DNA of 64,000 nt, taken from the NCBI GenBank assembly GCA_963809485.1, contig CAWEJX010000012.1, positions 261,285-325,284 of the forward strand, written 5' to 3'. Under the pieces are notes generated by a model, which did no database searches, was not told the origin of the DNA, and worked only from the letters and a program-made list of their open reading frames with translations. Positions 1,279-57,401 of this stretch are shown here, piece by piece (the stretch's first letter is position 1; each line of letters begins with the position of its first letter). Origin of the DNA: an uncultured Acidobacteriota bacterium. Its GTDB lineage: Bacteria; Acidobacteriota; UBA6911. Position numbers and translations under genes: made by a program.

Positions 1279-1500
1279 AAGTCAGGCACCTCCGGCAAAG
1301 CCGGAGGCTTGAAAGATTGGAACCGCTCAAAGCGGTTGGAGGAGTTACGCTGGTCTTGAACGCTGACTGACGCGGGCAAACGCCGACTCTCGCCGAACAA
1401 ATCATAGACGTTTGTCAGCGCTTTTGTCAGCGTATCTCAGCGTTTCAAAATGCGGAGCTGTCAAACTCTATGAATCCCCCGGCAGAGCCGTGGGTTTACC
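1279..1500. mobile_element. Non-autonomous IS200-type element (MITE/PATE-like), copy 1
   Basis: One end CCTCCGGC-AAA-GCCGGAGG then AACCGCTCAAAGCGGTT; other end GGAGCTGTCAAACTCTATGAATCCCCCGGCAGAGCCGTGGGTTTACC; no transposase between, only inverted CGCTGA/TCAGCG arrays; homologous copy at 33254-33478. Confidence 0.7.
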
Positions 1501-1574
1501 AATAGAATCGAGCACCCCGGGAACTGCGCCCATCTTTGAGATGAACGGTAGAGAGCCGTCCGTCCCTCTCAGTA

Positions 1575-2582
1575 TTACGCGGGCTTTTTAGCAGGCGCCT
1601 TTTTGTCGGGGCTGTAGAACGCTCCCGTATCCCTCCGGATCAGGAAGAAAACATAGGGTTTATCCACCTTCTGGGTGATGATGGGAGCATGCGTGTACAA
1701 TGCCGGGCAGACAACCACACAAGGGCTGGTAATATTGTAAACTTCTTCCTCCTTGCCCATATGCAGGTCAATTTGCGCCCCCAGCTGATTCGGATTCCGG
1801 GCATCCAGCCCGACATAAACCAGGAATTCATCGCCTTCATGAATGTGCGGGTCAAATCCGGGAATGTTATGCCAGTTGCCCAGTCCGGTATAGAACCCCC
1901 ATGTGAAGTTGACGATGAACCCTTCAAGGTCTTTGCTCTTGGGCCATGAAAGCCAGTCCGCGTTTCCCGAACCTATCTTTGTCTGTTCCGGCATCCCTGT
2001 GGCGGACATCTTCTTGATCAGGCGCCCATATTCGTTTTGGGATGAGCCTGCCCCCGGCTTTTCGGAAAGCTTCGTCTCGGCGTATTCCCCGGCAAGTCCG
2101 ATGGCATAGTGCGCGAAGGGCTTCTCGACTTTTTTGGTCACGATCGGGCCGTACGGAAAGTTTTTGGGGATGCATACAATCGAGGGGATGTTGATCACGT
2201 GCTTTTCATATTCTTTGCCCAGGGATATCTCGATCTCCGCTCCCAGGTAGTTCGGGTCTTTGGGCTCCAGGCCTGCAAAAACGAGACAAGTGTCATAAGG
2301 GTGCATCTTCGCCGTGGTTTCGGCGGCGTTCCAGGCGCCGGCCTTACTGTAATAACCAAAAGAAAAATTGGTATTGGTCCCATTCAGATCGTTGCGGTCC
2401 ATGCGGACAAAATAGTCGGCATCTCCGGGTCCGCTTTGTCCTACCCTATAAAAGAAGTTATGGAAATAATGCCCATACTTTGCTTCGGCCGCGGTTACCA
2501 GGGAACCCAGGGAGCTCGCCACGGCCAGCCCGGCGGTTCCAACAACCACATCCTTCACAAATTCTCTTCGCGTCGTGCTCAT
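1575..2582 (-). CDS. Tat-signal double-cupin-like protein, type A copy 1
   Basis: MSTTRREFVK Tat motif plus hydrophobic stretch; two internal repeats; cupin-like motifs PHIHEGDE...THAP; RBS GAAGGAGA upstream. Confidence 0.8.
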   Translation of the reverse strand: MSTTRREFVKDVVVGTAGLAVASSLGSLVTAAEAKYGHYFHNFFYRVGQSGPGDADYFVRMDRNDLNGTNTNFSFGYYSKAGAWNAAETTAKMHPYDTCLVFAGLEPKDPNYLGAEIEISLGKEYEKHVINIPSIVCIPKNFPYGPIVTKKVEKPFAHYAIGLAGEYAETKLSEKPGAGSSQNEYGRLIKKMSATGMPEQTKIGSGNADWLSWPKSKDLEGFIVNFTWGFYTGLGNWHNIPGFDPHIHEGDEFLVYVGLDARNPNQLGAQIDLHMGKEEEVYNITSPCVVVCPALYTHAPIITQKVDKPYVFFLIRRDTGAFYSPDKKAPAKKPA

Positions 2583-2685
2583 GCCTGTCTCTCCTTCTGT
2601 GACGTGCAGCCGGCCGCAGGACTCCTGAGACCGGCCAGCAAAATCTGTTGCTTCGCTTAAACTCGATACGTCTCCCAAAACGGGC

Positions 2686-3687
2686 TTATGCCGGATTGAT
2701 ATCCGAGGGATCTCCCTTATCCAGGCGCACCATGTACATCCCGAATGGCTTTTCCATACTCTTTGTGACTATCGGCCCGTGCTGCATCCCTGCGGGGATG
2801 ATGACGCACGACGGCACGCTGATCGTATGCTTTTCATCCTCGAGCGTGATTTCCACTTCTCCGCCGAGATATTCCGGCCGCTTGTTGTCCAGGCCCGCGA
2901 ACACCAGGAACTGGTCGCCCACATGCTTGTGCGGCTTGGCCCCCCAATCGCCGGTGGTTTTGTAAAACCCCCAAGCCCAGTTGACGTTGAAATTCTCCAC
3001 CTCTTTGCCCCGGATCCAGGTCAGCGAGTCCGCATTGCCCGGCCCCGTCTTGGCCTGTATGTCTTTCCGGAAAACCAGCTTCTTGTACAGCGGGTCATAT
3101 TTATGCCCGTCCGTGGTGTCGAGCGTGCTCCTCTGTGGCATTACGTCCGTCTTGTGGTTGGGCTCGAGGCTGAGAACGATAAACCCGAAAGCCTTGTCGC
3201 ACTTCAGCGTGATTTGTGGGCAGTGCACGACGTTCTTGGGATAACAGCATGCGGTCGGGACGCGGAAAACGTGCTTTTCGTATTCCTTTCCCGCATCGTG
3301 TTCGATCTCGGCGCCCAGGTATTCCGGCTTTTCCGGATCAAATCCAATGTAAATGAGGAGTTCGTCACCGTCGGGGTGCACATGCCCGCCGGTTTCCCTG
3401 GTGTGCCAATCGCCGATTTTGGTGTAATACCCGAAAGAGAAATTGACGTTCTTGTTTTCCAACTCGACTCCCTTGGGCCACCAGAGCAGGTCGGCATTCC
3501 CCGGTCCCACGACCTTGAACATCTCCTTCATGTTGTAGACGATTTTCTTGATCAGGTGTCCGTGTTTTGTTTCCTGCGCGGCTGCCGGCCATGCGCCCAG
3601 AGAGCTCACCACGGCCGCCCCCGCAGCGCCAAGCGCCGTATCTTTGACAAACTCCCTCCGAGTCGTGCTTTTATCGGCAAAATTCAT
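2686..3687 (-). CDS. Tat-signal double-cupin-like protein, type B
   Basis: TTRREFVK Tat motif, AAA cleavage site; GHVHPDGDE...VVHCP and PHKHVGDQ...PAGMQHGP; RBS AGGAGG. Confidence 0.8.
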   Translation of the reverse strand: MNFADKSTTRREFVKDTALGAAGAAVVSSLGAWPAAAQETKHGHLIKKIVYNMKEMFKVVGPGNADLLWWPKGVELENKNVNFSFGYYTKIGDWHTRETGGHVHPDGDELLIYIGFDPEKPEYLGAEIEHDAGKEYEKHVFRVPTACCYPKNVVHCPQITLKCDKAFGFIVLSLEPNHKTDVMPQRSTLDTTDGHKYDPLYKKLVFRKDIQAKTGPGNADSLTWIRGKEVENFNVNWAWGFYKTTGDWGAKPHKHVGDQFLVFAGLDNKRPEYLGGEVEITLEDEKHTISVPSCVIIPAGMQHGPIVTKSMEKPFGMYMVRLDKGDPSDINPA

Positions 3688-3743
3688 ACAAAATTCCCTC
3701 CTTTTGATGCTTAGCCTAATTATTAAACCATGTCCAAGCTACT

Positions 3744-4046
3744 TCAAAGGGCCGCCCCGGATTGGTGATTGCCGGGCGTCCGGACATACTGCTTGAACCC
3801 GGGCGCTGAAACCGTCAGGCTGTAAACGCCTGCGGGCAACTGGGCGAGCGTGAAGTTTCCGGTCGAGCTGCTGGCCACCTTGTATACGGCGGCAGTCGCC
3901 ACGTTTTTGGCCTCAACGGAAGCGTTGGGTATCATCGCGCCGGCGGGATCGGCAACCGTACCCGTGATCGTTCCACGGTCGCTCTGGGCAAATGCAATCC
4001 CCAAAAAAAGAATCGTGCAGGTGAGTATTTTTAACATCGAACGCAT
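3744..4046 (-). pseudogene. 5' stub of a TonB-dependent receptor
   Basis: MRSMLKILT...AQSDRGTITGTV...GFKQYVRT matches the N-terminus of the 6316 and 10651 receptors, then stops 10 codons later. Confidence 0.85.
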
Positions 4047-4354
4047 GAGATATGTCCTCCTGTGGTTAAATAAACCTTTACGGCCCATCTGAGGCCGCGA
4101 GATTTTGAGTGCACCAGGCACCGCTCGTTCCTGGCAAACAGGCCACTTTGCCAAAAGTGAACATCCACAAGCTGCCGCCCGAATCCTGCATTCAGGCTGA
4201 AATATCTCCAAGTTCGTCGTTTGCATCCGGCGCCGGAGCAAGGGAGCTCAAGTCAGCGGGTGCGAAAATCTTCCACAAGGAGTTCCACAGCGGACCCTTG
4301 CCGGCACCGGACATTTTGTTGGTGCCAGTATAGTACGCTTTTTTTATTTTGCAA
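4047..4354 (-). promoter_or_regulatory. Sigma70-like promoter and conserved long leader, copy 1
   Basis: TTGCAA-16bp-TATACT on minus strand (4354-4327); leader blocks shared with 9928-10239 and 14263-14577. Confidence 0.6.
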
Positions 4355-4967
4355 CATCAAGAATTCTCTTCAGAGACTGGCATCTCTAATCAGCTACTAT
4401 CCGGAAAGCAATCCTGACTTTTTAGGGTGAGGCTCCCGGGAAGGAATCCCATGGGGACGACTGACAGAGCAACGGTCGAGAACCGCAAAGCGGCCGAAGC
4501 CCGGGATTTGCCCGATCGCCCATAAGCGTCCGGGCCGGTCTCGGCCCGGCTTTTTGCACATGCATCGGAGAACCCGTAATAACACAGACGGAGGAGTGCC
4601 TCAAGAATAGGATTTTGCATTTAACGGGAGTTCCGGCAGGGCGGGGGAAATACAGCCGGGGAGGCGCGAAGCGAAACACCGGCAATATTCGACGGATCAG
4701 GGAGCCCTGGAAGGCGAAAGATCCGGTTCCGCCGCTCTTCCAGGTTTTTCCCTTGCTGATTTATACCGGGCCTCCGGCCTTTGATAACCGGAGGCCCATT
4801 CCGGCAAGCAAGAATGATTCTCCGGCGGCCCTTCGGGCCTCATTCGCGAATAAGGGGCCCGAATAAAGGGCCAGCCGCTTGGTTTTGCTGCTGCATGTTC
4901 GGGCCATCCTTGCCCCAGAACAAGGATACTGCAATTACGCCCGCTTTTAAGACAATCTCTGCCGCAA

Positions 4968-5975
4968 TTACGCGGGTTTCTTCGCAGGAGTTTGTTTGTT
5001 GGGGCTGTACCGCTCTCCCGTATCCCTGCGAATCAGGAAAAATCCATACGTCTTGTCCACCTTCTTGGTAATGACCGGAGCATGCGTGAAAAGCGCCGGA
5101 CAGACAATAACCTGCGGCACGGTGACTATATGGCTTTCCTCTTCCTTGCCCACATGCTGATCGACCAAGGCGCCCAAATCGTAGGGCTTTTTCGCGTCCA
5201 GGCTCACGAAAACCAGAAATTCATCGCCTTCGTGTTCGTGCGGATCAAACCCCGGGATGTCATGCCAGTTGCCCAGGCCGGAGTAGAATCCCCACGTGAA
5301 ATTAACGATGAAGCCCTCCAGGTCTTTGGCCTTAGGCCACGAAAGCCAGTCTGCATTGCCCGGACCGATTTTGTTAGCTCCCGGCTGCCCCGTCGCCGAC
5401 ATTTTCTTGATCAGATGCGCATACTTGCTCCCGGATGCAGGGGCTGCAGCCTTTCCGGCAAACTTCGACACAGCATAATCCCTTGCAAGGCCGATGTCAT
5501 AATGCGCGAAAGCTTTTTCGGCCTTTTTGGTCGTGATCTGGCCATAGGGAAAGTTTTTGGGAATACAAACGAACGAGGGGACATTAATCACGTGCTTTTC
5601 AAATTCCGGTCCAAGCACCAGCTCGATTTCGGCGCCCAGATAATTCGGATCCTTGGGTTCAAGGCCCGCAAAAACCAGGCAGGTGTCGTACGGATGGGTG
5701 CGGGCCCCGGTTTCGGCGGAATTCCAGGCTCCTACTTTGCTGTAGTAACCGAAGGAAAAATTGGTCTCCCTGTCGTTCATTTCCTTTCCACCAATCCGGC
5801 AGACATAGTCGGCAGCTCCCGGCCCGCCTTCTCCCTTCTTATAGACAAATTTATGCACCAAATGGGCATACTTCAGGTCAGCCGCGGCCGCCCAGGGGCC
5901 CAGCCGATTCGCAACCGCCAATCCGCCGGCTCCAACAAATACTTCCTTTACAAATTCTCTTCGCGTTGTGCTCAT
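4968..5975 (-). CDS. Tat-signal double-cupin-like protein, type A copy 2
   Basis: Full-length paralog of 1575-2582 (MSTTRREFVK; HPYDTCLVFAG; PHEHEGDE...THAP). Confidence 0.8.
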   Translation of the reverse strand: MSTTRREFVKEVFVGAGGLAVANRLGPWAAAADLKYAHLVHKFVYKKGEGGPGAADYVCRIGGKEMNDRETNFSFGYYSKVGAWNSAETGARTHPYDTCLVFAGLEPKDPNYLGAEIELVLGPEFEKHVINVPSFVCIPKNFPYGQITTKKAEKAFAHYDIGLARDYAVSKFAGKAAAPASGSKYAHLIKKMSATGQPGANKIGPGNADWLSWPKAKDLEGFIVNFTWGFYSGLGNWHDIPGFDPHEHEGDEFLVFVSLDAKKPYDLGALVDQHVGKEEESHIVTVPQVIVCPALFTHAPVITKKVDKTYGFFLIRRDTGERYSPNKQTPAKKPA

Positions 5976-6076
5976 GCCTGTATCTCCTTATATGAGGTGC
6001 AGCCGGTCGCGGTACTTCAGCGGCCGGCCCATAGTATCCGCCGTTTCGCCCGAATCTGCTTATGCGTCGCTCCGGC

Positions 6077-6253
6077 CTATGCTGGATTAATGTCGGACGC
6101 ATCTCCCTTATCTAGACGTACCATATACATTCCGAAAGGTTTTTCAACGCTTTTCGTCACGATCTGCCCGTGCTGCATTCCCGCGGGGAGGATGACGCAC
6201 GAGGGTACGTTGAACGTATGCTTCTCGTCCTCGAGCGTGATTTCCAGTTCGCC
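6077..6253 (-). pseudogene. 3' remnant of a type B double-cupin gene
   Basis: GELEITLEDEKH...PAGMQHG...DKGDASDINPA matches only the last ~58 aa of 2686-3687. Confidence 0.8.
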
Positions 6254-6259
6254 TTGGAT

Positions 6260-6293
6260 GGCATCCCCGGAATCCGTCCATCCCGGGGATGCC
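6260..6293 (-). terminator. Hairpin after receptor gene
   Basis: GGCATCCCCGG...CCGGGGATGCC 11-bp stem just past the stop at 6316. Confidence 0.5.
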
Positions 6294-6315
6294 ATGGCTC
6301 CACTATCAGGTCCTA

Positions 6316-9300
6316 CTAAAATTGAATTCTCGCAACTATCTGACCTGTACGGCCGATGCTGCCCGGACCCGTGTTGATATATCCGAAGCCCGTGATCGGT
6401 TTGCCGTTCGCATCGACTCTCTGCGTGGCCTGAGCATTCGTTGCAGTCGGATTGGGCACTCGAATCCGGTTGAACACGTTGTTCAGTTCAATCCGGATGT
6501 TAAGGGTGACTTGCTCCACTATCGGGAACGTCCTGCCCAGGCTCATGTTTTCGAGCGGAGCGCGCCGATACCGGTAATCGCTCAGGTATGCGGCCGTGGT
6601 GCCGAACTGGCCGGCAGCCGGATCCGACCAGGCTTTCGGGTTCAGCACGAATTCCTTGTTCGGGTCGAAGCAGCTCGTGCAGTTCAGGTCCGTCGTGAAA
6701 TACGGCTCCCCCTCCACACGGTTGGCGAACGAGCCCGTGCCGAACGGTACAGCCCCAAAAGAGAAGTTCATGGGGGTGCTGAGCTTCAACAAGGTGCCGA
6801 TCTGGTTTTGCGCATAGGGCACGCGGATCGGCGCTCCGCTGGTGTACGTCAGCATGACACCGTACGTCCAGTCACGGATTATCCACGACAACGTCTTGTT
6901 GGTTTCCAGCGCCGGAAGGCGATAGTTCGCCGCGACCACAAGGCGATGCGGCCGCGAGTAGCCGGACAGATACTTGTTAACATTCCGGTCCAGCGAGTTG
7001 TTGATGGAAGTATTGAGAGCGAAGAAGGCGGCGTTATCCGTCTCCCCCGTTCCCAGGGTGAGCTCCTTCGCCCAGGTATACGCGGCCGTCAGATCCAGAC
7101 CATACGAATACCGCTTGGTCACCTTCGCCTGCAGCGAGTCGTACCAGGTGTTGCCCTGCGGATTCCACAAAACATTGATCCCCGTGAATTGCGGGAACGG
7201 CCGCAGTGCCTGGTTCACCGTAAGCGCTTTCGAAAATGCCGGATAGGGCGGTGTGCCGAATCCCCTGGAGATTGCGGTCTGCGAGTCCAGGCGAGCAAGC
7301 AACAGGTCCCTATCCGCTTTAAGATTGATGTCCAGGTGGTTCTTGGCAAGGATTTCGGGCGTAAGCCGGTTGGGATCGTTGATCGCGGCCGCCTGCCACC
7401 ACACCCCGCGGTTGCCCACGTAGGCGGCTTCCACCGCCAGGTTCGTCGTGAGCTGGTACTGCAGCCCGATACTCCACATCATGATCCTGGGCGGACGCCC
7501 CGCGTTGTGATCAAACATGGTGAGGAACGACGTCGGCGTCGATGGAATCGCCGGAAATTGCCCCGGATCGAAGTTCGGCCATGTCGGTTGAATCGGCACG
7601 CCATCCTTCAGCAGCATCGCCGGCGTGCCATACGCCGGAGCCGCAAACGGAACGTTGGATCCAAAGCGCATCGACCAGAAATTGTTCGGCGCCGTCTGCC
7701 CGTAGGAATATCCCCAACCGCCGCGGAATACGGCCTTGGGAGTGATTTGATACGCAACCCCAAGCCGGGGACCAAAGGCGTACTTATAGACATTCGCAAA
7801 CGGACCCGACGTCTGCTCAAATATCACGCCCCCGGGCAGGTTGCCCACTGCAGGATTCGGCACTGCCGCCGAGATGCTCGGAACCCGGCCGTGCTGTTCC
7901 TTCAGGTAGCCCTGGTAATCCCAGCGCAAGCCGTAGTCCAGCGTCAATTTGCGCGTCACTTTCCACGTGTCCTGCGCGAACAGCGCCCAGGCGCTTTTGC
8001 CCATCCGGGTTGCTGTCTGCGGACCGATAGCTCCCGTGTCCACCGCGCCCAGCATGAAGCTGGCCCACGGGAATCCCACCGTGCCCCCGAAAAGATTCTG
8101 GCCCTGCGTCGAGGGAAGCCCCGACTCAATCGCGTTGAAGGCAAAATAGCCGTTGGAGGGCCAATCGAGATACATCGGGTTGCCCGCCAGGCGCAACTCC
8201 ACACCGAACTTGTACGTGTGGTTCTGTTTGACCCAGGTCAGGCTGGCGTTGGTTGTGGGTTTCTCCTCATATAAATGGTACAGCTGATTGGCGCCCATCC
8301 CCCCTGTCGGATTGCCGTAGCCCCCAAATGGCGAAAAGATGCCTGTGATGGTGGGGAAAAAGTCTACGTAGGTCCCCTTCAGCCCGAGCTCCTCTTCAGT
8401 TTTGAATTCAGGCTGAGTTTGTGCCCACAGGGTGTGCATGTAGCCCGCGCCAAAATGCAGCAGCAGTGTCGGACTGAGAGTCTGATCATAGTTCAGGCGA
8501 AAAGTATGCGAATTCTGGGGGTTGTCGTACGCCATGCTGCCCGGGAAATCCAGCCCGTCGTTCATCTGCTTGCGGCCGATGGTAAAGGCGTACGACCAGT
8601 AGCCGGACAGCTTGATTTTGGGGCTGAAATAGTGATCGATTTTGACCGCCGGAATGGTCTTGGCAGAAGGGATAAACTGGTTGGGATAGAAGTTGTTGGT
8701 TATGGCCGAGTTGGTCGGCATCGGCACCAGCGCCTGAATCTTTGCCGATACCGGATCAAATCGTTCTACCGGAATCCGATTGTTTGGAAACGGATCGCGA
8801 ACTCTCAGGCCATTGACGGTTGTTTCTGTGGCCGGATCGTAGATCGCGTTTTCCCAGATGGGGACCGGGTTGCCCTGGGTATCCAGGGCGCAGTTGGGAT
8901 TTGTCGCCGGACAGAGATTCCGTCCCGTCAGGATTGCGCTGAAATCCCCATTCCGCATCGCCACAGTGGGAATCGTGTTCGGCGTGATGTAGCTTACGGA
9001 CGTGCGGTACTGCTCGAAATTGAAAAAGAAGAAGGTCTTGTCCCGGCCGTCATAGATGCCGGGCAGGTAGACGGGCCCTCCAAGGGTAAAACCGTAATCG
9101 TTCTTGCGGTCGCGCGGCTTTTGGTTGATGTATCCCCGGCTCGCATTCAGCGCCTCGTTCACCCAATATTCGTAGGCGCTTCCGTGAAGGGCGTTGGTGC
9201 CTGATTTGATGGCTGCGTTCATCACCCCACCGCCCGCCTGCCCGAATTCGGCCGCGAAATTGCTGGTCTGAATCGCAAACTCATCAATAGCGTCCACGCT

Positions 9301-9927
9301 TGGCTGAGCCACGTATTGAAACCCGCTGTCGATGCCCAGGTTGGCATCCTGGCCCTCAATCCGCAGAGTCTGCGTGCCCGCCGGAGTCCCCTGCATGCGG
9401 ATGCTGGTGCTGTTCGCGGACCCGCTCGCCGACAGGCCGGGAACCAGGTCTGCGGCAGCATAGGGAGAGCGCATACCGCCTCCGACCGCCAGAATAGGCA
9501 GTTCGTTCAGGCGTTGGGATGTGACGGTATGACTCAGGTCGCCGCTTTCCGTCCTCAGCAGCGGGGCGTCGGCATTGACCGTGACGGTTTCGGTGATGTT
9601 TCCTACCTCGAGCGCGACATCAACGCGCAGGGTCTGCGCGACCAGCACCGTGATGCCCGTTCGGACGTACTGCTTGAATCCTTGCGCCGAGACGGATATC
9701 TGGTAGCTGCCGGCCGGCAGCTGGGCAAGGGTGTAATTGCCCGTGGACGTGCTTTCCACCTGGTATAAAGCACCCGTCTCGGAATTCTTGGCATCAATCC
9801 TGGCACCCGGTATAACGGCTCCTGCGGGGTCCGCGATCGTGCCCGTGATTGTGCCTCGGTCGCTCTGGGCGAACGCCAATCCGCCCAGGAGCAGCAAACA
9901 TGTGAGTGTTATCAACATCGAGCGCAT
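6316..9927 (-). CDS. TonB-dependent receptor (Acidobacteria type), copy A
   Basis: Signal peptide, carboxypeptidase-regulatory-like domain, SNFAAEFG...KSGTNALHGSAYEY, FAQDTWKVTRKLTLDYGLRWD, C-terminal Phe. Confidence 0.93.
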   Translation of the reverse strand: MRSMLITLTCLLLLGGLAFAQSDRGTITGTIADPAGAVIPGARIDAKNSETGALYQVESTSTGNYTLAQLPAGSYQISVSAQGFKQYVRTGITVLVAQTLRVDVALEVGNITETVTVNADAPLLRTESGDLSHTVTSQRLNELPILAVGGGMRSPYAAADLVPGLSASGSANSTSIRMQGTPAGTQTLRIEGQDANLGIDSGFQYVAQPSVDAIDEFAIQTSNFAAEFGQAGGGVMNAAIKSGTNALHGSAYEYWVNEALNASRGYINQKPRDRKNDYGFTLGGPVYLPGIYDGRDKTFFFFNFEQYRTSVSYITPNTIPTVAMRNGDFSAILTGRNLCPATNPNCALDTQGNPVPIWENAIYDPATETTVNGLRVRDPFPNNRIPVERFDPVSAKIQALVPMPTNSAITNNFYPNQFIPSAKTIPAVKIDHYFSPKIKLSGYWSYAFTIGRKQMNDGLDFPGSMAYDNPQNSHTFRLNYDQTLSPTLLLHFGAGYMHTLWAQTQPEFKTEEELGLKGTYVDFFPTITGIFSPFGGYGNPTGGMGANQLYHLYEEKPTTNASLTWVKQNHTYKFGVELRLAGNPMYLDWPSNGYFAFNAIESGLPSTQGQNLFGGTVGFPWASFMLGAVDTGAIGPQTATRMGKSAWALFAQDTWKVTRKLTLDYGLRWDYQGYLKEQHGRVPSISAAVPNPAVGNLPGGVIFEQTSGPFANVYKYAFGPRLGVAYQITPKAVFRGGWGYSYGQTAPNNFWSMRFGSNVPFAAPAYGTPAMLLKDGVPIQPTWPNFDPGQFPAIPSTPTSFLTMFDHNAGRPPRIMMWSIGLQYQLTTNLAVEAAYVGNRGVWWQAAAINDPNRLTPEILAKNHLDINLKADRDLLLARLDSQTAISRGFGTPPYPAFSKALTVNQALRPFPQFTGINVLWNPQGNTWYDSLQAKVTKRYSYGLDLTAAYTWAKELTLGTGETDNAAFFALNTSINNSLDRNVNKYLSGYSRPHRLVVAANYRLPALETNKTLSWIIRDWTYGVMLTYTSGAPIRVPYAQNQIGTLLKLSTPMNFSFGAVPFGTGSFANRVEGEPYFTTDLNCTSCFDPNKEFVLNPKAWSDPAAGQFGTTAAYLSDYRYRRAPLENMSLGRTFPIVEQVTLNIRIELNNVFNRIRVPNPTATNAQATQRVDANGKPITGFGYINTGPGSIGRTGQIVARIQF

Positions 9928-10239
9928 GAGCTCTATCCTCCTGTGTGAGTGAACCTGTACAACCCATCTGAGGCCGCGCGATCTATGGCGAGTCGGGCGC
10001 CTCTGGCTTCAGCCGTATGGGCCAAATCTTCGTTGACAAGTCAAATGCCGTCACTGGAATCCGGCATTCATGAAGCAATATTTCTCAATTACGTCGTTTG
10101 CATCCGGCTGCCTGAGTGAGGGCGCTGAAGTGATCTGGTGCAAACATCTTCACAAGCAGCTCCGCAGCACCGCATATACCGCCGCCGGATTAAAAAGAAA
10201 CCGAGCAATATCATATCCTGTAATATTTTGGATTAGCAA
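9928..10239 (-). promoter_or_regulatory. Sigma70-like promoter and conserved long leader, copy 2
   Basis: TTGCTA-18bp-TATGAT on minus strand; shared leader blocks. Confidence 0.55.
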
Positions 10240-10650
10240 GGAATCTTTGGTGAGACCCGAATTTCTTCTGTGAGACTGGCTATTTCGATACATGCCGCCG
10301 GGCGAATATTTCCCAAGCCATAATTGAGGCAGTCTGTGCCGCATTCGATGCCTGGCTGGAAAGCGCGGTGTTTTCTAATCGATCGCAGCTGGAAGGCGTG
10401 GCTTTGGTCCGCCCCGCAGAAGGCGTATAGGAAGGTCCCGCTGGGGCCTGTCAGGCCGGAAAAACCCTGCGGCCTTGAGCATCGAAGCCGCCGAACGCGT
10501 AGCCGCGCACCTGATCCCAGGCCGGCCTTTCAAGGCCGGCCTGGGATTGATTCGAGCAATGCGTCGCCTCAGCACGGAATCAGCCGCCATCCTCGCCCCG
10601 GAATCAAAAAGATTCCGGGGCGAGGACGGCCTTTGCGGCTTTCGTTCACA

Positions 10651-13600: not shown

Positions 13601-14262
13601 GTCTGAATCGCAAACTCATCAATAGCGTCCACACTCGGCTGCGCCACATATTGAAATCCGCTGTCGATGCCCAGGTTTGCATCCTGACCCTCAATCCTCA
13701 GAGTCTGCGTGCCCGCCGGAGTCCCCTGCAAGCGGATGCTGGTACTGTTCGCGGATCCGCTCGCCGACAGGCCGGGAACCAGGTCCGCGGCAGCGTATGG
13801 AGAGCGCATACCGCCTCCGACTGCCAGGATGGGCAGTTCGTTCAGGCGTTGAGAGGTGACGGTATGGCTCAGGTCGCCGCTCTCCGTCCTCAGCAACGGT
13901 GCGTCGGCATTGACCGTGACGGTTTCGGTGATGTTTCCTACCTCGAGCGCAACATCAACGCGCAGGGTTTGCGCCACGAGCACCGTGATGCCCGTTCGGA
14001 CGTACTGCTTGAATCCTGATGCCGAAACGGATATCTGATAGCTGCCGGCCGGCAGCTGGGCAAGGGTGTAATTGCCCGTGGACGTGCTTTCTACCTGGTA
14101 TAAAGCGCCGGTCTGGGAATTCTTGGCCTCGATCTTGGCGCCCGGTATCACCGCTCCTGCGGGATCCGCGATCGTGCCCGTGATTGTGCCTCGGTCGCTC
14201 TGGGCGAACGCCAATCCGCCCAGCATCAGCAAACATGTGAGTGCTATCAACACTGAACGCAT
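10651..14262 (-). CDS. TonB-dependent receptor (Acidobacteria type), copy B
   Basis: 1203 aa from ATG 14262 (RBS AGGAGG); colinear and nearly identical to copy A. Confidence 0.93.
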   Translation of the reverse strand: MRSVLIALTCLLMLGGLAFAQSDRGTITGTIADPAGAVIPGAKIEAKNSQTGALYQVESTSTGNYTLAQLPAGSYQISVSASGFKQYVRTGITVLVAQTLRVDVALEVGNITETVTVNADAPLLRTESGDLSHTVTSQRLNELPILAVGGGMRSPYAAADLVPGLSASGSANSTSIRLQGTPAGTQTLRIEGQDANLGIDSGFQYVAQPSVDAIDEFAIQTSNFAAEFGQAGGGVMNAAIKSGTNALHGSAYDYFVNEAFNANRAYINQKPRDRKNDYGFTLGGPIYLPGIYDGRDKTFFFFNFEQYRTSVTYITPNTIPTVAMRNGDFSAILTGRNLCPPANPNCALDTKGNPVPIWENAIYDPATETTVNGLRVRDPFPNNRIPVERFDPVSAEIQALVPMPTNSAITNNFYPNQFIPSAKTIPAVKIDHFFSPKIKLSGYWSYAFTIGRKQMNDGLDFPGSMAYDNPQKSHTFRLNYDQTLSPTLLLHFGAGYMHTLWAQSQPEFKTEEELGLKGTYVDFFPTITGIFSPFGGYGNPTGGMGANQLYNLYEEKPTTNASLTWVKQNHTYKFGVELRLAGNPMYLDWPSNGYFAFNAIESGLPSTQGQNLFGGTVGFPWASFMLGAVDTGAIGPPTATRVGKSAWALFAQDTWKVTRKLTLDYGLRWDYQGYLREQHGRVPSISAAVPNPAVGNLPGGVIFEQTSGPFANVYKYAFGPRLGVAYQVTPKAVFRGGWGYSYGQTAPNNFWSMRFGSNVPFAAPAYGTPAMLLKDGVPIQPTWPNFDPGQFPAIPSTPTSFLTMFDHNAGRPPRIMMWSIGLQYQLTTNLAVEAAYVGNRGVWWQAAAINDPNRLTPEILAKNHLDINLKADRDLLLSRLDSQTAINRGFGTPPYPAFSKALTVNQALRPFPQFTGINVLWNPQGNTWYDSLQAKVTKRYSYGLDLTAAYTWGKELTLGTGETEDAAFFVLNPSINNSLDRNVNKYLSGYSRPHRLVVAANYRLPALETNKAVSWIIRDWTYGVMLTYTSGAPIRVPYAQNQIGTLLKLSTPMNFSFGAVPFGTGSFANRVEGEPYFTTDLNCTSCFDPNKEFVLNPKAWSDPAAGQFGTTAAYLSDYRYRRAPLENMSLGRTFPIVEQVTLNIRIELNNVFNRIRVPNPTATNAQATQRVDANGKPITGFGYINTGPGSVGRTGQIVARIQF

Positions 14263-14577
14263 GAGACCTATCCTCCTAGAAGATAATTGGGCTTGTGCGA
14301 CCCATCCGAGGCTTCGGGCTTTATGGCACATCGGGCGCCGTCCCGTTCCAGCAGACAGGCCACTTCTCCAACAGTGATAATATTGAAGCCGCCGCTCGAA
14401 TCCGGTATTCGGGCGGGAATATCTCTCAATTACGTCGTTTGCATCCGGCAGCCTGAACATGGACACCAAAGTCAGCAGGTGCAAAAGCTTCAACGAAGAG
14501 CTTCGCAGCAGGATCTTGACGGCGCCGGATTTTAATCGGTTGCAGCCAGTATAAGATACTTTATAAATATTTGGCAA
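14263..14577 (-). promoter_or_regulatory. Sigma70-like promoter and conserved long leader, copy 3
   Basis: TTGCCA-18bp-TATACT on minus strand; shared leader blocks. Confidence 0.6.
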
Positions 14578-16669: not shown

Positions 16670-16711
16670 CCAGTGTTTGTCAGCGTTTTTTTATCAGCGC
16701 ATGTCAGTGTT
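16670..16711 (+). repeat. Four-box TCAGCG array
   Basis: CCAGTG-TCAGCG-TCAGCG-TCAGTG, spacing 10/14/10, between convergent genes. Confidence 0.7.
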
Positions 16712-22207: not shown

Positions 22208-22370
22208 AAGGAAGTCCCCTGAATCCTTTTATGCAGAACAAATCCGGAATTTTACATGATTGTTTAAATTTGCGCCATCCCGTTAAAGCGGCCTCAATGC
22301 GGGCATAGTATTGCAGGAAGTGATGCGGAGTTCGCGGAGCAAATGATTGACGCGGGCAGCCCGGTTTCCG

Positions 22371-22563
22371 ATGAAACGCTTCTTTTGCCTCAAGAGGTCG
22401 GCCCTTTGCAGTGCGACACCATCGGAAGCGTCTCGTTGGCTCCTGCAAGCCGACCGGTGCCTTTGTGATCAGCGTTCGTCAGTGTTTTGTCAGTGTATGT
22501 CAGCGTTCAATGATCCTGGAACGTTCAAACTCTGTGAGCTCCTCAGCAGAGCCGGCGGTTACC
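22371..22563 (+). mobile_element. Partial copy of the IS200-type element with TCAGCG array
   Basis: TCAGCG/TCAGTG x4 (10/11/10) followed by GATCCTGGAACGTTCAAACTCTGTGAG...GCAGAGCCGGCGGTTACC, matching one end of the complete copies. Confidence 0.6.
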
Positions 22564-22570
22564 CCTTAAT

Positions 22571-24607
22571 TCAGCAGGACTCACGATACCCGAGAACCAT
22601 CATCGTGATGTCATCGTGCTGGGGAGTATTTGCGGAAAATGCCAGCACGGCCTCCTGCAGGCGAGCCAGGATCTCCGGCGCGCCTGCCCGGGCATTGTCC
22701 CGCAGCAGGGATACTACGCGGTCGATGCCGAATTCCTCTCCCGAGACATTGAGCGCTTCGACAACGCCATCCGTGAACAGGACCAGGTGATCGTCGGGCT
22801 GGAGTCTGACGGTAGCAGCCTCGTACTGCACTCCGGGAAAGAGGCCCAGGACCATTCCGCCGACCGTCAGCTCCTTCATCGAGCCGTCCCGGCTCAGAAG
22901 AAAGGGTGGATTGTGACCGGCATTGACATACGTGCAGTTGCCTTCAGGATCCAGAATACCGAAGAAAAAGGTTACGAAGCGATTCCCGGTCCCTCGGCGC
23001 ACCAGAGAGCGGTTGACGCTGCTGATAATGTCAGGAAGCGGAGATTCAAAGAGCGTTTGGCCGGAAAAGATCCCCTGGATCAGGGAAGCCAGGAGAGCCG
23101 CGGGCATTCCCTTGCCGGCAACGTCTCCCACGGCAAAGCCTAATCGCCGGCCTTCGAGTTCGAAGTAGTCAAAGTAATCGCCGCCGATTTGATAGCAGGG
23201 GATGCTTCGGCTGCAGGCGCGGGCATATTCCGTTTGCCGGTTCGGGTCAGGAAGCAGCGACTGCTGGATCTCGTGGGCAAGCACCAGTTGCTCTTCCATC
23301 CTGCGTTTGTCCTGAGAATCCTTATAAAGCTGGGCGTTGTAGATTGCCATCGCGGCCTCGGATGCGAGGGTTTCCAGAGCATCGACCCGCATATTCGACA
23401 TTCCGGCGCCGACATTTGCGCTGTCCACATAAAGGACCCCGATGTTTTCAGCGCGACCGATAGCCGACAGGTTGCTGGATTCATGGACCGTGAGATAACG
23501 CAGTGGAACACAGGAAATGCTGCGCAATCCCAGCTGGCGGGTGAAGTTGTGATTTTCAGCCGCCTCCCCGAAATCCAGGTCTTTGATGACAACCGGGCGG
23601 CCGGTTTTGAACACTTCGTGAGGAACGCGCTGGCTGGTCTGGAAGCAGGATCCGTCCAGAGGACGTTTATGATTGTTGCGCGCGCAGCGGAAACTTAATT
23701 CTCCCCCCGGCTCCCTGAGCATTATAAAGCCGCGCTCGGCCCCGGTCAGCTCGATGGCCGTGTCCACAACCAGGGCAAGAAGGTCGTCCAGCACAGGGAT
23801 GGAGCTGAGGGCGCGGAATGCGGCGAACAGCTTCCCGACATCTTTAAATCCCCGGACCGATAGCCCGATATCGTCGCCCGTAACAGAGCTGGCCAGAAGC
23901 GATTGAAGGAGGTCTCCCGTGTGAAAGGCAAGGCTTATCCCATCGGGTCCGCCGAGCTGAACCCGATCCCCATCCTTCAGCCTGGCCTGTTCCACCCGAA
24001 CACCATTCAGATAGGTCCCGAGCTTGCTGCCAAGATCATGCAGCCCGTACTCCCCATCCTGGACCAGGACTTCGGCGTGAGAGCGCGAAACGCCCATCTG
24101 CCCCAGCACAAGATTGTTGGCCGACCCGCGCCCGATCGTGAACCTGGGAGGCTTAACGGTAGCCCAGCATTCCCTTCCGCCTTCATCAAGGTAAAAGAAG
24201 CGGGCTGCCGACGGGGGATTTGCCTGGATTTCGCGCGACGACATCCTTCTGGCGCTGCGCTGCAAACTGTCATCCAGGGCCTGGCCAGTCAGGGGAAGAA
24301 AAAGGATGTCTGCCGCGCCCGCACGCCAGGCTTCAAGAACAAGGCTCTCCGGCATCCGGTCACACACGAACACAACCGGGACCGAAGGAAAGATTCCCGT
24401 GAGCTCTTGCAGCTGGCGTATTGCGCCGCCATCCGCGGCCGACCGCAGATAGGTCAAATCCACCTTTCGAGACCGCAGCCTCTCCCGGGCCTCGGCAAGG
24501 TCTCCGGCAGCGAACACCTCCTTGCCCGATCGCGAAAAATGCGCCGAGACAAGGCTCTCTTCGGAGCCAGTCAGTCCAATGAACAGAATGGAATAGTTTT
24601 CAGTCAT
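22571..24607 (-). CDS. SpoIIE/RsbU-type PP2C phosphatase with receiver-like, FHA and GAF domains
   Basis: FHA (IGRG...VSRSHA...DLGSKLGTYLNG), GAF (GAERGFIML), PP2C (GGDYFD, GDVAGKG, LFTDGV, DDIT). Confidence 0.92.
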   Translation of the reverse strand: MTENYSILFIGLTGSEESLVSAHFSRSGKEVFAAGDLAEARERLRSRKVDLTYLRSAADGGAIRQLQELTGIFPSVPVVFVCDRMPESLVLEAWRAGAADILFLPLTGQALDDSLQRSARRMSSREIQANPPSAARFFYLDEGGRECWATVKPPRFTIGRGSANNLVLGQMGVSRSHAEVLVQDGEYGLHDLGSKLGTYLNGVRVEQARLKDGDRVQLGGPDGISLAFHTGDLLQSLLASSVTGDDIGLSVRGFKDVGKLFAAFRALSSIPVLDDLLALVVDTAIELTGAERGFIMLREPGGELSFRCARNNHKRPLDGSCFQTSQRVPHEVFKTGRPVVIKDLDFGEAAENHNFTRQLGLRSISCVPLRYLTVHESSNLSAIGRAENIGVLYVDSANVGAGMSNMRVDALETLASEAAMAIYNAQLYKDSQDKRRMEEQLVLAHEIQQSLLPDPNRQTEYARACSRSIPCYQIGGDYFDYFELEGRRLGFAVGDVAGKGMPAALLASLIQGIFSGQTLFESPLPDIISSVNRSLVRRGTGNRFVTFFFGILDPEGNCTYVNAGHNPPFLLSRDGSMKELTVGGMVLGLFPGVQYEAATVRLQPDDHLVLFTDGVVEALNVSGEEFGIDRVVSLLRDNARAGAPEILARLQEAVLAFSANTPQHDDITMMVLGYRESC

Positions 24608-24778
24608 GAGTGAACACCCGGATAAACAGACCCAAGAAACCTGGCGTGGCTCCCCGGCCACAACATAAGAATCCCTGCAACAAAAGCCGCTGCCGAATCG
24701 GAAATCCGGGATGCCGCAAATGGGCGGGTCCGGACTGTGACAGGCCGCCTCCCGGGATCCGCAAAAGCCGGCGGCGCG

Positions 24779-25204: not shown

Positions 25205-25543
25205 GATCCGATCCCTCCTTGCGCGCAATAAATGCCGCAAATCACAGGGCTGATCTCTGCCCTGCGGTTTGAACCGCATTTCTCCGTGACCAGCCTTCAT
25301 CGAATCCTGGTTCCGGCGTCCGTTGATGAATCTGGTTCGAAGATGGATTTCCAGCCGAATGAATTCCGACCTGACCGGATGGACCCGCGACCTGTATGCA
25401 GCCCAGCTCCCTGCCGATCATGAGGAACAGCGCCTCCACGTCGACCGCTGGTGCAATGCTCTGAAACGCATTTTTTGATACTAATTGATATTGTAATGGA
25501 ATCATGGGATTAATGACAGTCCAGAATGGAAGGCCGCCAGGGA

Positions 25544-25637
25544 AACGCTGACCTGCGCTGACAAAAGCGCTGATATACGCTGAACAACCTATATTTTTTC
25601 AGCGTGCGTCCGCGTCTGTTCAGCGTAGCTCAGCGTT
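25544..25637. repeat. Inverted pair of four-box arrays
   Basis: CGCTGA x4 (10/12/10), AT-rich spacer, then TCAGCG/TCCGCG x4 (10/11/10); no IS ends. Confidence 0.8.
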
Positions 25638-32368: not shown

Positions 32369-33286
32369 ATGCAGAACCTCGAAGGGAAGGTTGCCTTTAT
32401 TACGGGCGGAGCCAGCGGCATAGGGCTTGGCATAGCAAAAGCATGTGTCAGGGGCGGGATGAAAGTTGTCCTTGCGGATATCCGCCAGGATCACCTGAAT
32501 GAGGCCCTGGCCGGTTTTAAAGCGGAAAATCTGGAAAGGAGCATCCATGGCATCCTGCTGGATGTTACCGATCGCGAAGCGTTCGCCCGGGCGGCGGACG
32601 AAACCGGGCACGTTTTCGGCAAGGTTCATCTCCTGTGCAACAACGCCGGCGTTGGCGTGATCGGGCCGATAAAGGACGCGGGATTCAGCGACTGGGATTT
32701 CGCTCTGGGGGTGATGCTCGGCGGAACGGTTAACGGGCTGCAGATCTTTCTGCCCCGCATTCTCAAACACGGCGAGGGCGGACATATTGTCATGACATCG
32801 TCGACGGGCGGCATCCTCCCCCTTGCAGAGAGCGTCATATATTCCACAGCCAAAGCGGCGCTGATCGGAATGTGCGAAGCCCTGCGAGGGGCGCTGGAGG
32901 AAGACAATATCGGCGTATCCGCTTTTTGTCCCGGGCCCGTGGCCACGAATATCCGCGAGACGGGACGCTTGCGACCGGAGAAATACCGGAAGGACAGCGG
33001 CTATCTTCAATTCGAGAAGAAGCTGGAACAGCGCCCGAATTCGCCCAACTGGATGAGCATCGAGGAATGCGGAGAGAGAGTGCTGCGGGGAATCCGGCGC
33101 AACGACCTCTACATTTTCACACACAGGGAATTCAAAGAAGGCGTGGCAGAGCGCATGGAGGCCATCCTGGCAGCTTTCCCGGACGATCCGATCAACCATG
33201 CGCTGATAGCGGAAATACCTCACCTGTTTTCAAATCCCGTATTTCGGCGGTCCAGTCAAATACCTCTGGCAGAGCCGGAGGCTTGA
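32369..33286 (+). CDS. Short-chain dehydrogenase/reductase
   Basis: TGGASGIG, NNAG, YSTAK. Confidence 0.92.
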   Translation: MQNLEGKVAFITGGASGIGLGIAKACVRGGMKVVLADIRQDHLNEALAGFKAENLERSIHGILLDVTDREAFARAADETGHVFGKVHLLCNNAGVGVIGPIKDAGFSDWDFALGVMLGGTVNGLQIFLPRILKHGEGGHIVMTSSTGGILPLAESVIYSTAKAALIGMCEALRGALEEDNIGVSAFCPGPVATNIRETGRLRPEKYRKDSGYLQFEKKLEQRPNSPNWMSIEECGERVLRGIRRNDLYIFTHREFKEGVAERMEAILAAFPDDPINHALIAEIPHLFSNPVFRRSSQIPLAEPEA

Positions 33287-33478
33287 TTGTCTACCGCTCA
33301 AAGCGGCTGGATGAGCTACACTGCCTCTAACCGCTGACATACGCTGGCAAGAGCCAATGAGACGCTTCCGTTGCCTTATGGATCGGCGTTCGTCAGCGTT
33401 TGGTCCGCGTATGTCGGCGTTCAAGGATCCTGGAACTGTCAAACTCCGTGAGTCGCCCTGCAGAGCTGTGGGATTACC
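33254..33478. mobile_element. Non-autonomous IS200-type element, copy 2
   Basis: AGTCAAATACCTCTGGCAGAGCCGGAGGCTTGA...ACCGCTCAAAGCGG...box array...GGAACTGTCAAACTCCGTGAGTCGCCCTGCAGAGCTGTGGGATTACC; colinear with 1279-1500. Confidence 0.7.
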
Positions 33479-33564
33479 AGTTTATTTAGGGGATTGAGTT
33501 ACAAGGCAGGACAAACCGGTGCCGAGAGAGGATATCCTCACGCGGAGGCGCGGAGAATAGAAGG

Positions 33565-39056: not shown

Positions 39057-39074
39057 ATCCAGAGCATTTTTTTA

Positions 39075-39114
39075 TCAGCGTCCGTCAGCGCTTTTGTCAG
39101 CGTCTGTCCGCGTT
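39075..39114 (+). repeat. Four-box TCAGCG array
   Basis: TCAGCG-TCCG-TCAGCG-CTTTTG-TCAGCG-TCTG-TCCGCG-TT (10/12/10). Confidence 0.8.
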
Positions 39115-40007
39115 ACAGAGTTCGGCGAGCAATATAAATCGAGAATGCTGGAGCAGCGCGGTTTTTCGAGAAGGAACCGATAGACGTTTTCCGCAACGGG
39201 CTTGCCGCCGGGCTTTTTCAGCACCGGCGTTTCCCAAAATATCGTCCGCAATCCGGCTTTCTCCACCAGCGCCTTGAGAGAAGCAGGCGTGAAATACCAC
39301 AGGTGGTGGATGGCCGCGTAGTGGCGCCAGCGGCGGGCCTTGAGATGCAGACGGCTTTGTACGGATTTGATCCGCGAGCTGATTCCGGCAAGGTTTGGTA
39401 CACTGATGAATATGATGCCCCCGGGCGCGGCCAATCTGCCGCTGTTTTGCAGTTCCACCAGCGGATTTTGAGTGTGCTCCAGAACATGGTTGATGCGAAT
39501 CGCGTCAAAGGATCCGGGTTCGAGGTCCGCCTGGCCGAGCTGCCCCTCGACCAGCCTGCAGGATAGCCTGAGCGCCTGTTCAGAGAGCCGGATGTCCGTT
39601 CCCGTGACCTCCCATCCTTCCTTCTGTGCGAAGGCCAGAAAAGCGCCGTCACCGCAGCCAAAATCCAGGAGACTGCCCTTCCGGCGCAGCAGTCTGAAGA
39701 TCGTGTTCAGCTGCCGATGAAATTGATATTGGCGGGTGTAGGCGATCTGCTGTTCTCCGCCCGAAAGATAGAAATATTCCTGCTGATAGAGGAGCTCGCG
39801 AAGCTCTTCGAGGGTCGGCCTTGGATTGGCGAATTCGAGCTTGCAGACGGGACAACGGCAGAGGTGGAATCCCTGATGGTCCACGGCGAACAGCCGGGGT
39901 TCGACATCGCAGACCGGGCACCGGACCTGCTCCATTTGCCGGAATCCGGGCACCCCCAGGGAACTGTCCTCGTTTGGATTAGTTTGTTCGGGACTCACTT
40001 CCATCAA
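39075..40007 (-). CDS. Class I SAM-dependent methyltransferase with N-terminal Cys motifs
   Basis: CPVC...CPVC, LLDFGCGDG, HVLEH, ISVPN. Confidence 0.88.
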   Translation of the reverse strand: MMEVSPEQTNPNEDSSLGVPGFRQMEQVRCPVCDVEPRLFAVDHQGFHLCRCPVCKLEFANPRPTLEELRELLYQQEYFYLSGGEQQIAYTRQYQFHRQLNTIFRLLRRKGSLLDFGCGDGAFLAFAQKEGWEVTGTDIRLSEQALRLSCRLVEGQLGQADLEPGSFDAIRINHVLEHTQNPLVELQNSGRLAAPGGIIFISVPNLAGISSRIKSVQSRLHLKARRWRHYAAIHHLWYFTPASLKALVEKAGLRTIFWETPVLKKPGGKPVAENVYRFLLEKPRCSSILDLYCSPNSVTRTDADKSADGR

Positions 40008-45744: not shown

Positions 45745-45834
45745 TCTGCTGAGGATGGGAGAACCTGCGGAGTTTGACAGCTCCTTGACCGGATAACGCC
45801 GACTTACGCTGACAATAGCGCTGAGGAACGCTGA
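45745..45834 (-). mobile_element. Degenerate reverse copy of the IS200-type end plus four-box array
   Basis: TCTGCTGAGGA...GGAGTTTGACAGCTCC then CGCCGA/CGCTGA x4 (10/12/10). Confidence 0.6.
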
Positions 45835-45874
45835 CCATCAAGACTCCGGCAGCGCGGGAGGCCGGTGGTTTTGC

Positions 45875-57299: not shown

Positions 57300-57338
57300 T
57301 CAGCCTTCATCCGCGTCTATTCAGCGTCCGTCGGCGTC
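57300..57338 (+). repeat. Four-box TCAGCG array
   Basis: TCAGCC-TCCGCG-TCAGCG-TCGGCG (10/11/10). Confidence 0.65.
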
Positions 57339-57401
57339 CTGTTATGCTGAGCCCGTCTGCTCTTGAGAATTCTCCGCCAGAGTTGCGGATTGCCGATGCA
57401 T

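Follow-up and report, generated by a model that had tools for sequence, protein, structure and literature searches.

A transposase-free repeat with IS200-type ends and a palindromic hexamer interior in intergenic DNA of Acidobacteriota

A 64,000-nucleotide stretch of contig CAWEJX010000012.1, from an uncultured Acidobacteriota bacterium (hereafter the window), contains several copies of a short intergenic repeat with hairpins near its ends, and the question raised by this locus is what kind of element the repeat represents. A first-pass annotation, made from the letters alone, had proposed a transposase-free derivative of an IS200-type insertion sequence (IS) that spreads a second repeat family. 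Our analysis indicates that the repeat, about 230 bp long, is very probably a palindrome-associated transposable element (PATE), consisting of the two ends of a tnpA-only IS of the IS200 group (IS200/IS605), with the transposase gene absent and a palindrome of about 100-130 bp, built of hexamer units, in its place. The defining features of PATEs are used as set out for Haloquadratum (PMC3119063), and the general features of IS200/IS605 ends follow PMC6006769 and PMC10055086. A full-text literature search returned no description of this element or its arrays in Acidobacteria.

A profile built from a MAFFT pairwise alignment of the two complete copies, c1 and c2, was run on the window with nhmmer. 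These copies are colinear and identical in 162 of 218 ungapped columns, about 74%, and the model built from the pair recovers them with E values of 1e-73 and 4e-75. Two one-ended copies, c3 and c4, are also recovered (E 5e-21 and 1e-12), both retaining the same side of the element, the right end; weaker matches are arrays of the TCAGCG-type hexamer. All four copies had been pointed out in the first-pass annotation, and all are real, with some adjustment of their limits. The left ends of the complete copies had been placed almost exactly (1279 and 33254, set here at 1280 and 33254), whereas their right ends (given as 1500 and 33478) lie about nine bases farther out. Likewise c3, given as 22469-22563, is longer; c4 had been given as 45745-45834, reversed. 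The copies and the parts of c1 are as follows.

c1, 1280..1509, + strand: complete transposase-free element of 230 bp; ends set against seven foreign full copies; sense of the lost tnpA on the - strand.
c1 modules, + strand, from module models: left end (LE) 1280-1352, middle (MID) 1354-1452, right end (RE) 1454-1509.
c1 left sub-terminal hairpin 1, 1289..1307, + strand: 8-bp G+C stem with AAA loop; the tnpA-downstream end in the intact relatives L024 and L025 described below.
c1 left hairpin 2, 1321..1337, + strand: 7-bp stem with CAA loop; kept in the plasmid loci L020, L021, L024 and L025.
c1 interior cargo, 1354..1452, unstranded: imperfect palindrome, with one clear CGCTGA and degenerate units in the left arm and TCAGCG at 1415, 1427 and 1437 in the right arm.
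c1 right end, 1454..1509, + strand: conserved GTCAAACTC block, hairpin 3 at 1476-1494, A/T-rich tail of 15-16 nt.
c2, 33254..33488, + strand: complete transposase-free element of 235 bp, of a second subfamily; overlaps the last 33 nt of an SDR open reading frame (ORF), 32369-33286 (+).
c3, 22344..22572, + strand: one-ended copy; the array portion, with a central insertion, and the right end; no left end.
c4, about 45745..45854, - strand: one-ended copy; right arm of the array and a decayed right end, hairpin lost.

The identity of the element is carried by the homology of its ends to intact IS200-type elements. When c1 was compared by blastn with a plasmid collection, only its two end pieces matched, at 84-86%, on plasmids of Desulfovibrionales and Rhodanobacter. 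On plasmid pDCAR1 of Solidesulfovibrio carbinolicus (locus L023), 60 nt separate the right-end match from a truncated Y1_Tnp ORF on the opposite strand (PF01797, E 2.9e-12). This tnpA (3760-3942) breaks off at 60 residues, just short of the HUH motif, where it meets an IS1380-family element, and it is absent from the gene table of the plasmid. Querying with the junction between right end and tnpA of L023 yielded two intact elements and a third with one end cut away.

L024, about 2498-3104, Pseudodesulfovibrio profundus plasmid paDPRO: intact element; reverse complement of the right end, tnpA, reverse complement of the left end.
L025, about 2490-3125, Leptolyngbya boryana plasmid pLBX: intact element; reverse complement of the right end, tnpA, reverse complement of the left end.
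L026, Azotobacter salinestris plasmid: right (upstream) end and tnpA; far end cut by IS701.

Both ends and tnpA lie within about 620-650 bp in L024 and L025. The three transposases (TnpA) have 143-144 residues and pairwise identities of 61-71%; each covers positions 2-121 of the 121-position Y1_Tnp profile (E 7e-36 to 7e-41). The ends in the three loci are matched by nhmmer with E values from 1.4e-12 to 3.9e-06. By blastn, the reverse complement of c1 aligns with L025 at IS positions 21-68 (83.3% over 48 nt) and 594-642 of 657 (81.6% over 49 nt), and that of c2 with both ends of the same element (84.3% over 51 nt and 75.4% over 61 nt). At both extremes of L024 and L025, c1 and c2 are matched colinearly with E values of 1e-12 to 2e-8, with one weak exception, the tnpA-upstream end of c1 against L024 (73.7% over 38 nt, E 0.005). 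Both ends thus have homologous counterparts at the extremes of intact tnpA-only elements, with order and relative orientation preserved, which supports the earlier call that they are IS200-type. Full tnpA elements with the same ends, which had been proposed as a check, exist on plasmids as L024 and L025, and the proposal had been made to depend on the ends finding such a Y1-transposase counterpart somewhere.

Since the reverse complement of the right end precedes tnpA in the intact elements, what had been labeled the right end is the tnpA-upstream end, which in c1 lies on the opposite strand; what had been labeled the left end follows the tnpA stop codon. In the intact elements, the upstream end has a hairpin and a TTGACA-containing block, followed by a stem-loop that covers the ribosome-binding site; in the acidobacterial element, too, TTGACA is found in the reverse complement of the right-end GTCAAACTC block. 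We take this layout to fit that of IS200 itself. The plasmid elements therefore resemble the window copies in end sequence (75-84% over 48-61 nt), order, spacing, hairpin pair and TTGACA block, and differ from them in encoding a Y1 transposase of 143-144 residues, in the stem-loop over the ribosome-binding site and in having no hexamer arrays.

Shells free of ORFs also occur among the plasmid relatives. One, on the same plasmid as L024 (L020, 4002-4271), has an unrelated interior between ends that match at 98.6% and 80.6%, each over 72 nt; a second, on a Rhodanobacter plasmid (L022, 3888-4057), is likewise devoid of hexamer arrays. These two and a Desulfolutivibrio copy (L021, 4001-4090) are ORF-less or interrupted shells found in none of the gene tables, and in L020 and L021 a DDE transposase gene lies within 170-280 bp downstream of the shell. 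A search for a second copy of the Leptolyngbya element reported two places per record, and the same element had no match in E. coli genomes.

Several further properties agree with a non-autonomous IS200-type derivative. The longest stop-free stretches in c1 and c2 span 52 and 76 codons, compared with a TnpA of 143 residues, and tblastn found no TnpA match within the copies, as expected of the transposase-free element that had been proposed. Mechanical ORFs do run across the repeats: one of 70 residues lies inside c2 (33230-33442, - strand), and ORFs of 94-419 residues without a Pfam match cross elements in loci from two other Acidobacteriota genomes. Such ORFs, running into or through element copies, are likely annotation artefacts. 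The absence of target duplication that had been predicted also holds, in that no duplication of fixed length is present among the 14 full copies considered below: eight have 0 nt, and the others 1, 1, 2, 3, 3 and 4 nt. Conserved terminal words are T-R-A-T-T at one end and A-G-T-C at the other, and beyond these termini the flanks in the full-copy alignment share no motif.

An alignment of nine full copies resolves the element into a left module of 74 nt, a middle module of about 100-130 nt and a right module of 57 nt. The left module has an 8-bp G+C hairpin with an AAA loop followed by a 7-bp hairpin; the middle is an imperfect palindrome with hexamer units at 10-12-10 bp, varying in unit number and, in some copies, having an A/T-rich centre; and the right module comprises the conserved block, a hairpin and an A/T-rich tail of 16 nt. 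In c1, the right-arm TCAGCG units are spaced by 12 and 10 bp, and the self-complementarity of the interior is detected as an nhmmer match at 1490-1354. The outer left and right hairpins are near-identical direct repeats, with an 8-bp G+C stem and an ARA loop, and the termini are not inverted repeats of each other. The sub-terminal hairpins at both ends and the CGCTGA/TCAGCG arrays inside the complete copies, which had been read from the window, were all located, and their stems are kept by compensatory changes. Watson-Crick pairs occupy 221 of 274, 131 of 153 and 115 of 126 stem cells across the three hairpins, the last figure being that of left hairpin 2. The right-end stem is imperfect in c1 and c2 and perfect in the family consensus, with compensatory changes in other copies, and left hairpin 1 has a T-A to C-G change in 3 of 19 aligned copies; double changes comprise T-A to C-G and G-C to A-T. 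The hairpins are under constraint.

The interior differs from the shell in its distribution. Within the window, the pattern TCNGYG-N4-TCNGYG occurs 17 times against 1.14 expected, a count reached in none of 100 shuffles, and GTCAGCG occurs 21 times against 9.3. Arrays are also found free of the IS200-type ends.

25542..25637, unstranded: free palindromic double array without IS200-type ends; four CGCTGA, an A/T-rich centre and four TCAGCG-type units, spaced 10-12-10 in each arm.
39074..39120, + strand: free single array of four units, 10-12-10, between convergent genes.
About 16677..16711, + strand: free single array of three units, between convergent genes.
57302..57390: weak free array.

Because free arrays and the shell interior have in common the 10-12-10 spacing and a CTTTTG/A middle spacer, and double arrays also the A/T-rich centre, they are regarded as one family, which bears out the earlier statement that a second repeat family occurs free as well. 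Every acidobacterial full copy has the same kind of palindromic array as its interior. On the plasmids, an array model applied to eight loci gave nothing real (best E 0.25), and a free array had no match in the plasmid collection. Cargo is a fair label for the array, as it is absent from the non-acidobacterial relatives and found free, and the composite of an IS200-type shell and a second repeat family stands as it had been proposed. Since the non-acidobacterial shells are without arrays, the arrays were most likely acquired by the shell within this lineage; so far, the hexamer array has been seen only in these acidobacterial sequences.

The role of the arrays is less clear. Their helical phasing points to a protein that would occupy a single face of the helix, and the layout of direct hexamers in both arms of a hairpin around an A/T-rich centre recalls, as we understand them, the iteron-plus-hairpin origins of HUH Rep proteins. 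No gene consistently adjoins the arrays in the window or in the loci of the other genomes; an ORF of 159 residues lying between two arrays in one such locus (L011) was tested as a hidden Y1 enzyme and has no Pfam match at E<=1. The arrays might be a mobile or protein-bound family of their own, for example similar to repetitive extragenic palindromic (REP) sequences with a different HUH enzyme, one member of which entered the IS200 shell as a second vehicle. This would be a true two-tier system, a speculative reading that we consider rather unlikely at present. Single free arrays may also be shells stripped of both ends. In one full element (L018, 7524-7926), the array centre holds an extra insertion of about 170 bp, itself a long near-perfect palindrome and a third level of nesting.

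The element is not confined to the window. A genome collection was scanned with a degenerate pattern over the junction of array and right end that matches all four window copies; at least 19 loci were found, and among the matches listed all lie in two Acidobacteriota metagenome-assembled genomes (MAGs; CAYYTC01 and JAFNAG01) and none in the window's own genome. The sampled acidobacterial DNA, 64 kb of window and 319 kb of MAG loci, amounts to 383,022 nt after removal of overlap and contains 48 instances, about one per 8 kb. These comprise 14 full copies, 3 without the outer left hairpin, 1 with a core deletion, 9 with array and right end, 4 with the right end only, 1 with left end and array, 3 isolated hairpins and 13 arrays alone, proportions that are biased because the scan pattern favours copies keeping the array/right-end junction. 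All 48 lie outside Pfam-supported genes; once ORFs overlapping an element by more than 45 nt are discarded, as is done by construction in this tally, every instance falls between ORFs. Among the 47 with two assignable neighbours, 19 lie between convergent genes.

The copies also speak to past movement. The element is multi-copy and set in unrelated gene contexts in three acidobacterial genomes, and the fixation at orthologous positions in distant relatives that would have argued against mobility was not seen in the sampled loci. c1 is nearer to the copies of the first MAG (78-90%) than to c2 (73.5%), and c2 groups with those of the second MAG by its terminal words, so at least two subfamilies are common to several genomes. 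Of the foreign copies, L016 comes closest to c1, at 90.6% identity, and its flanks are wholly unrelated. Together with the shared subfamilies, this copy points to past transposition and not to a recent burst.

The route of such transposition can be outlined from what is established for the family. A Y1 HUH transposase supplied in trans would bind both hairpins on one strand while the DNA is single-stranded, cut beside a short motif at each end, release a single-stranded circle and re-insert it beside a short target motif without duplication (PMC6006769, PMC10055086); the array would travel as a passenger. The active strand would be the tnpA-sense strand, that is, the - strand for c1 and c2, and the target would be a T-R-A(-T) word adjoining the tnpA-upstream end on that strand. 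Read in the tnpA sense, most copies start with T-R-A-T-T. The distances from terminus to hairpin foot are 16 nt and 9 nt, values that we take to fit the tnpA-sense strand better than the other by comparison with IS608.

A consequence of this target may be an association with stop codons. In 9 of the 28 tnpA-upstream ends, an ORF of 100 codons or more reads into the element and stops at its terminal T-R-A; among all 18,356 stop triplets in the same DNA, 7.9% end a frame this long (binomial p 2e-4). Six of the nine ORFs are genes with Pfam domains reaching their last residues (TrkH, ion channel, PPK2, amidohydrolase, tRNA_SAD and the SpoIIE/FHA/GAF gene at 22571-24661); another is ambiguous, and two overlap better-supported genes on the opposite strand and are probably spurious. 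The SpoIIE/FHA/GAF gene (- strand) converges on c3, whose final three bases are its stop codon. The element end would often fall exactly on a stop codon because of its T-R-A(-T) target, the tolerated words being mostly stop codons in a genome of 57% G+C.

Against a family of mobile elements served by an IS200 transposase stand several observations, which bear mainly on whether it moves today. The nine full copies are 64-93% identical (median 83%) with no two identical, 34 of the 48 instances are truncated or partial, and orientation relative to neighbouring genes in tandem contexts has no bias (7 same, 6 opposite). Pfam found no Y1_Tnp domain in 54 ORFs of the window or in 280 ORFs of the MAG loci, 130 of the latter being searched at E<=1e-12 only, and no transposase of any kind was found near the copies among the same ORFs; tblastn with the three TnpAs against the 383,022 nt gave a best E of 0.5, so that a cognate tnpA of the same genome was not found in this sample. 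Every relative found with a tnpA belongs to another phylum. IS copies are often missing from MAG assemblies. A comparison of empty sites between the window and the two MAGs found no orthologous flanks within the sampled loci, for which reason the exact cut points and target motif are placed by deduction, and stem mismatches (G.T 20, A.C 29) do not resolve which strand is structured. As the copies are diverged and many are truncated, current activity is doubtful; the family looks old and largely decayed, and many copies may now be inert.

Much of this evidence would suit relics equally well, that is, copies of IS200-type PATE origin that have lost mobility and in some cases been exapted, either as stabilisers or terminators at 3' ends or, through the arrays, as protein-binding sites. 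The divergence and truncation of the copies and the want of a tnpA in the sampled 383 kb are in line with it, as are the placement between convergent genes, the nine ends abutting stop codons, with a G+C hairpin 13 nt past the gene stop, and the preservation of stems by compensatory changes. Recognition by a transposase predicts compensatory changes equally, however, and a simple scan of 1100-1700 found no terminator-like site, the hairpin tails not being T-rich, while orientation relative to flanking genes is not uniform. This account concerns present activity and not origin and so does not conflict with the homology of the ends; it is quite conceivable, though we lean somewhat against it.

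A second alternative is that the elements or arrays are maintained, in the manner of REP sequences or bacterial interspersed mosaic elements, by a single-copy domesticated Y1 enzyme, such as a REP-associated tyrosine transposase (RAYT), its terminal-inverted-repeat counterpart (TIRYT) or a 'class 3' Y1 protein, in place of an IS200 transposase. High density, strictly intergenic placement (48 in 383 kb) and mosaic, modular make-up recall such systems, in which high-copy intergenic hairpin repeats are tied to HUH Y1 enzymes and inverted dimers fold into long hairpins, a trait of the free double arrays as well. All three enzyme types have been reported in Acidobacteria, TIRYT genes with repeat families (PMC3733652), and class 3 Y1 genes there have on their flanks atypical structures that occur in high copy number, about 600 of them in Solibacter usitatus (PMC6006769, Table S1). 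The ends studied here, however, match true IS200-type elements whose class 1-like TnpAs of 143 residues span the whole PF01797 profile. No GT[AG]G or CGTC foot is present at the hairpins, and the 'CnGA-foot' repeats of class 3 in the accessible part of Table S1 (PMC6006769) differ, having only an 8-mer in common with the right hairpin. The sampled DNA contains no Y1 gene, no RAYT-like gene lies beside any copy, and the array-flanked ORF of L011 is without a Pfam match, as noted above. Maintenance by a domesticated enzyme is therefore decidedly unlikely for the element, although the terminal inverted repeats of acidobacterial TIRYT genes (PMC3733652) may bear on the arrays.

That the repeat is a multi-copy family of structured small-RNA genes, with the likeness to IS ends secondary, is very unlikely. 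IS200 ends make regulatory RNAs in Salmonella, the hairpins are conserved with compensatory changes, and c1 has a fold z-score of -3.45. The fold of c2 is unexceptional (z -1.88, with 11 of 200 shuffles as good), and no Rfam family matches the window at gathering thresholds. There is no consistent promoter or terminator, the scan of 1100-1700 giving two weak promoter-like matches inside the array; truncation points are many and varied, and both ends flank a transposase gene in the relatives. A conventional miniature inverted-repeat transposable element of a DDE transposon, which would likewise be small, non-coding, intergenic and multi-copy, is refuted by termini that are not inverted repeats and by the lack of a fixed-length target duplication, the DDE transposases beside the plasmid copies (ISL3, IS1380, IS701, DDE_5) being separate insertions that interrupt or neighbour the element.

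The preferred reading as a PATE also places the element among known systems. PATEs are non-autonomous IS200/IS605 derivatives first catalogued in Haloquadratum walsbyi (PMC3119063) and known also from Geobacillus stearothermophilus (PMC10055086). Like the window elements, they lack terminal inverted repeats and target duplications, and the palindromes near their two ends are similar to one another and to those of intact members. Homogeneous, heterogeneous and core-deleted 'terminal-only' copies are distinguished. The counterpart of the last here is L018 3252-3374, in which the outer left hairpin is joined to an array remnant and the right end, and which appears to have arisen by deletion between the element's two CTTGAA words. 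In contrast to the described PATEs, whose parent is of the IS605/IS1341 type with tnpB, the parent here belongs to the tnpA-only IS200 group, the host is an Acidobacteriota bacterium, a foreign palindromic array forms the interior of every acidobacterial full copy, and no guide-RNA (omega RNA) region is evident. No pair of left and right ends enclosing an ORF was found in the window or the MAG loci.

The arrays have their closest described analogy in SMR-A of Haloquadratum, small mobile repeats whose mobilisation route is unknown and which often lie inside PATEs and IS605-type elements (PMC3119063). Both are second small repeat families with inverted symmetry and no target duplication, occurring free and inside PATEs. 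SMR-A, however, made many independent insertions into PATEs, whereas here the composite itself was multiplied and is common to three genomes; and SMR-A has plain inverted terminal repeats where the arrays are phased hexamers at 10-12-10, so the two are likened by description and not by sequence.

The window has further features apart from these repeats. Its genes, which look acidobacterial, include, by Pfam, receptors of the TonB type with a CarboxypepD_reg domain and an aldehyde:ferredoxin oxidoreductase. A repeated gene cassette lies in 1574-14577, in which ORFs 1575-2678 and 4968-5975, and 2686-3687 and ~6074-6253, are 73-82% identical in DNA sequence. Two large outer-membrane genes of the TonB type (6316-9927 and 10651-14577; CarboxypepD_reg and OMP_b-brl_4) have stretches 96-100% identical, and a fragment of 165 residues with the same N-terminal domain lies at 3744-4241. 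At 51064-52917, seven head-to-tail repeats of 287-288 bp, 69-100% identical, run across ORFs 50561-51346 and 51431-54268, which have Fn3 and purple-acid-phosphatase-N domains. ORF 49331-50335, which may be a fusion or rearranged gene, joins a histidine-kinase ATPase domain to a partial sigma-54 activator AAA+ domain, of which it has only the first ~70 positions, and a PemK/MazF-type toxin ORF lies at 54689-55144 (E 1.7e-8).

These results give an identity to an abundant and previously unlabelled intergenic repeat of Acidobacteriota, present about once per 8 kb of the DNA sampled. The element is a known kind of parasitic DNA; what is new is its lineage, the Acidobacteriota, its uncommon passenger and its association with stop codons. 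It belongs to a single IS200-group lineage, and across four phyla the ends of this lineage have kept 75-86% identity. The insertion of such elements directly at stop codons, as it appears to occur in GC-rich genomes, is relevant both to annotation and to regulation at 3' ends, and models of the left, middle and right modules would stop annotation pipelines from calling spurious ORFs across the repeats. The arrays are the unexplained part. If they are bound by a protein or have a mobilising enzyme of their own, this type of locus would be a handy entry point, as the same array can be compared in three settings: free, next to a single end and enclosed in a defined shell. Should the two-tier reading be true, one selfish repeat would be riding another across acidobacterial genomes.

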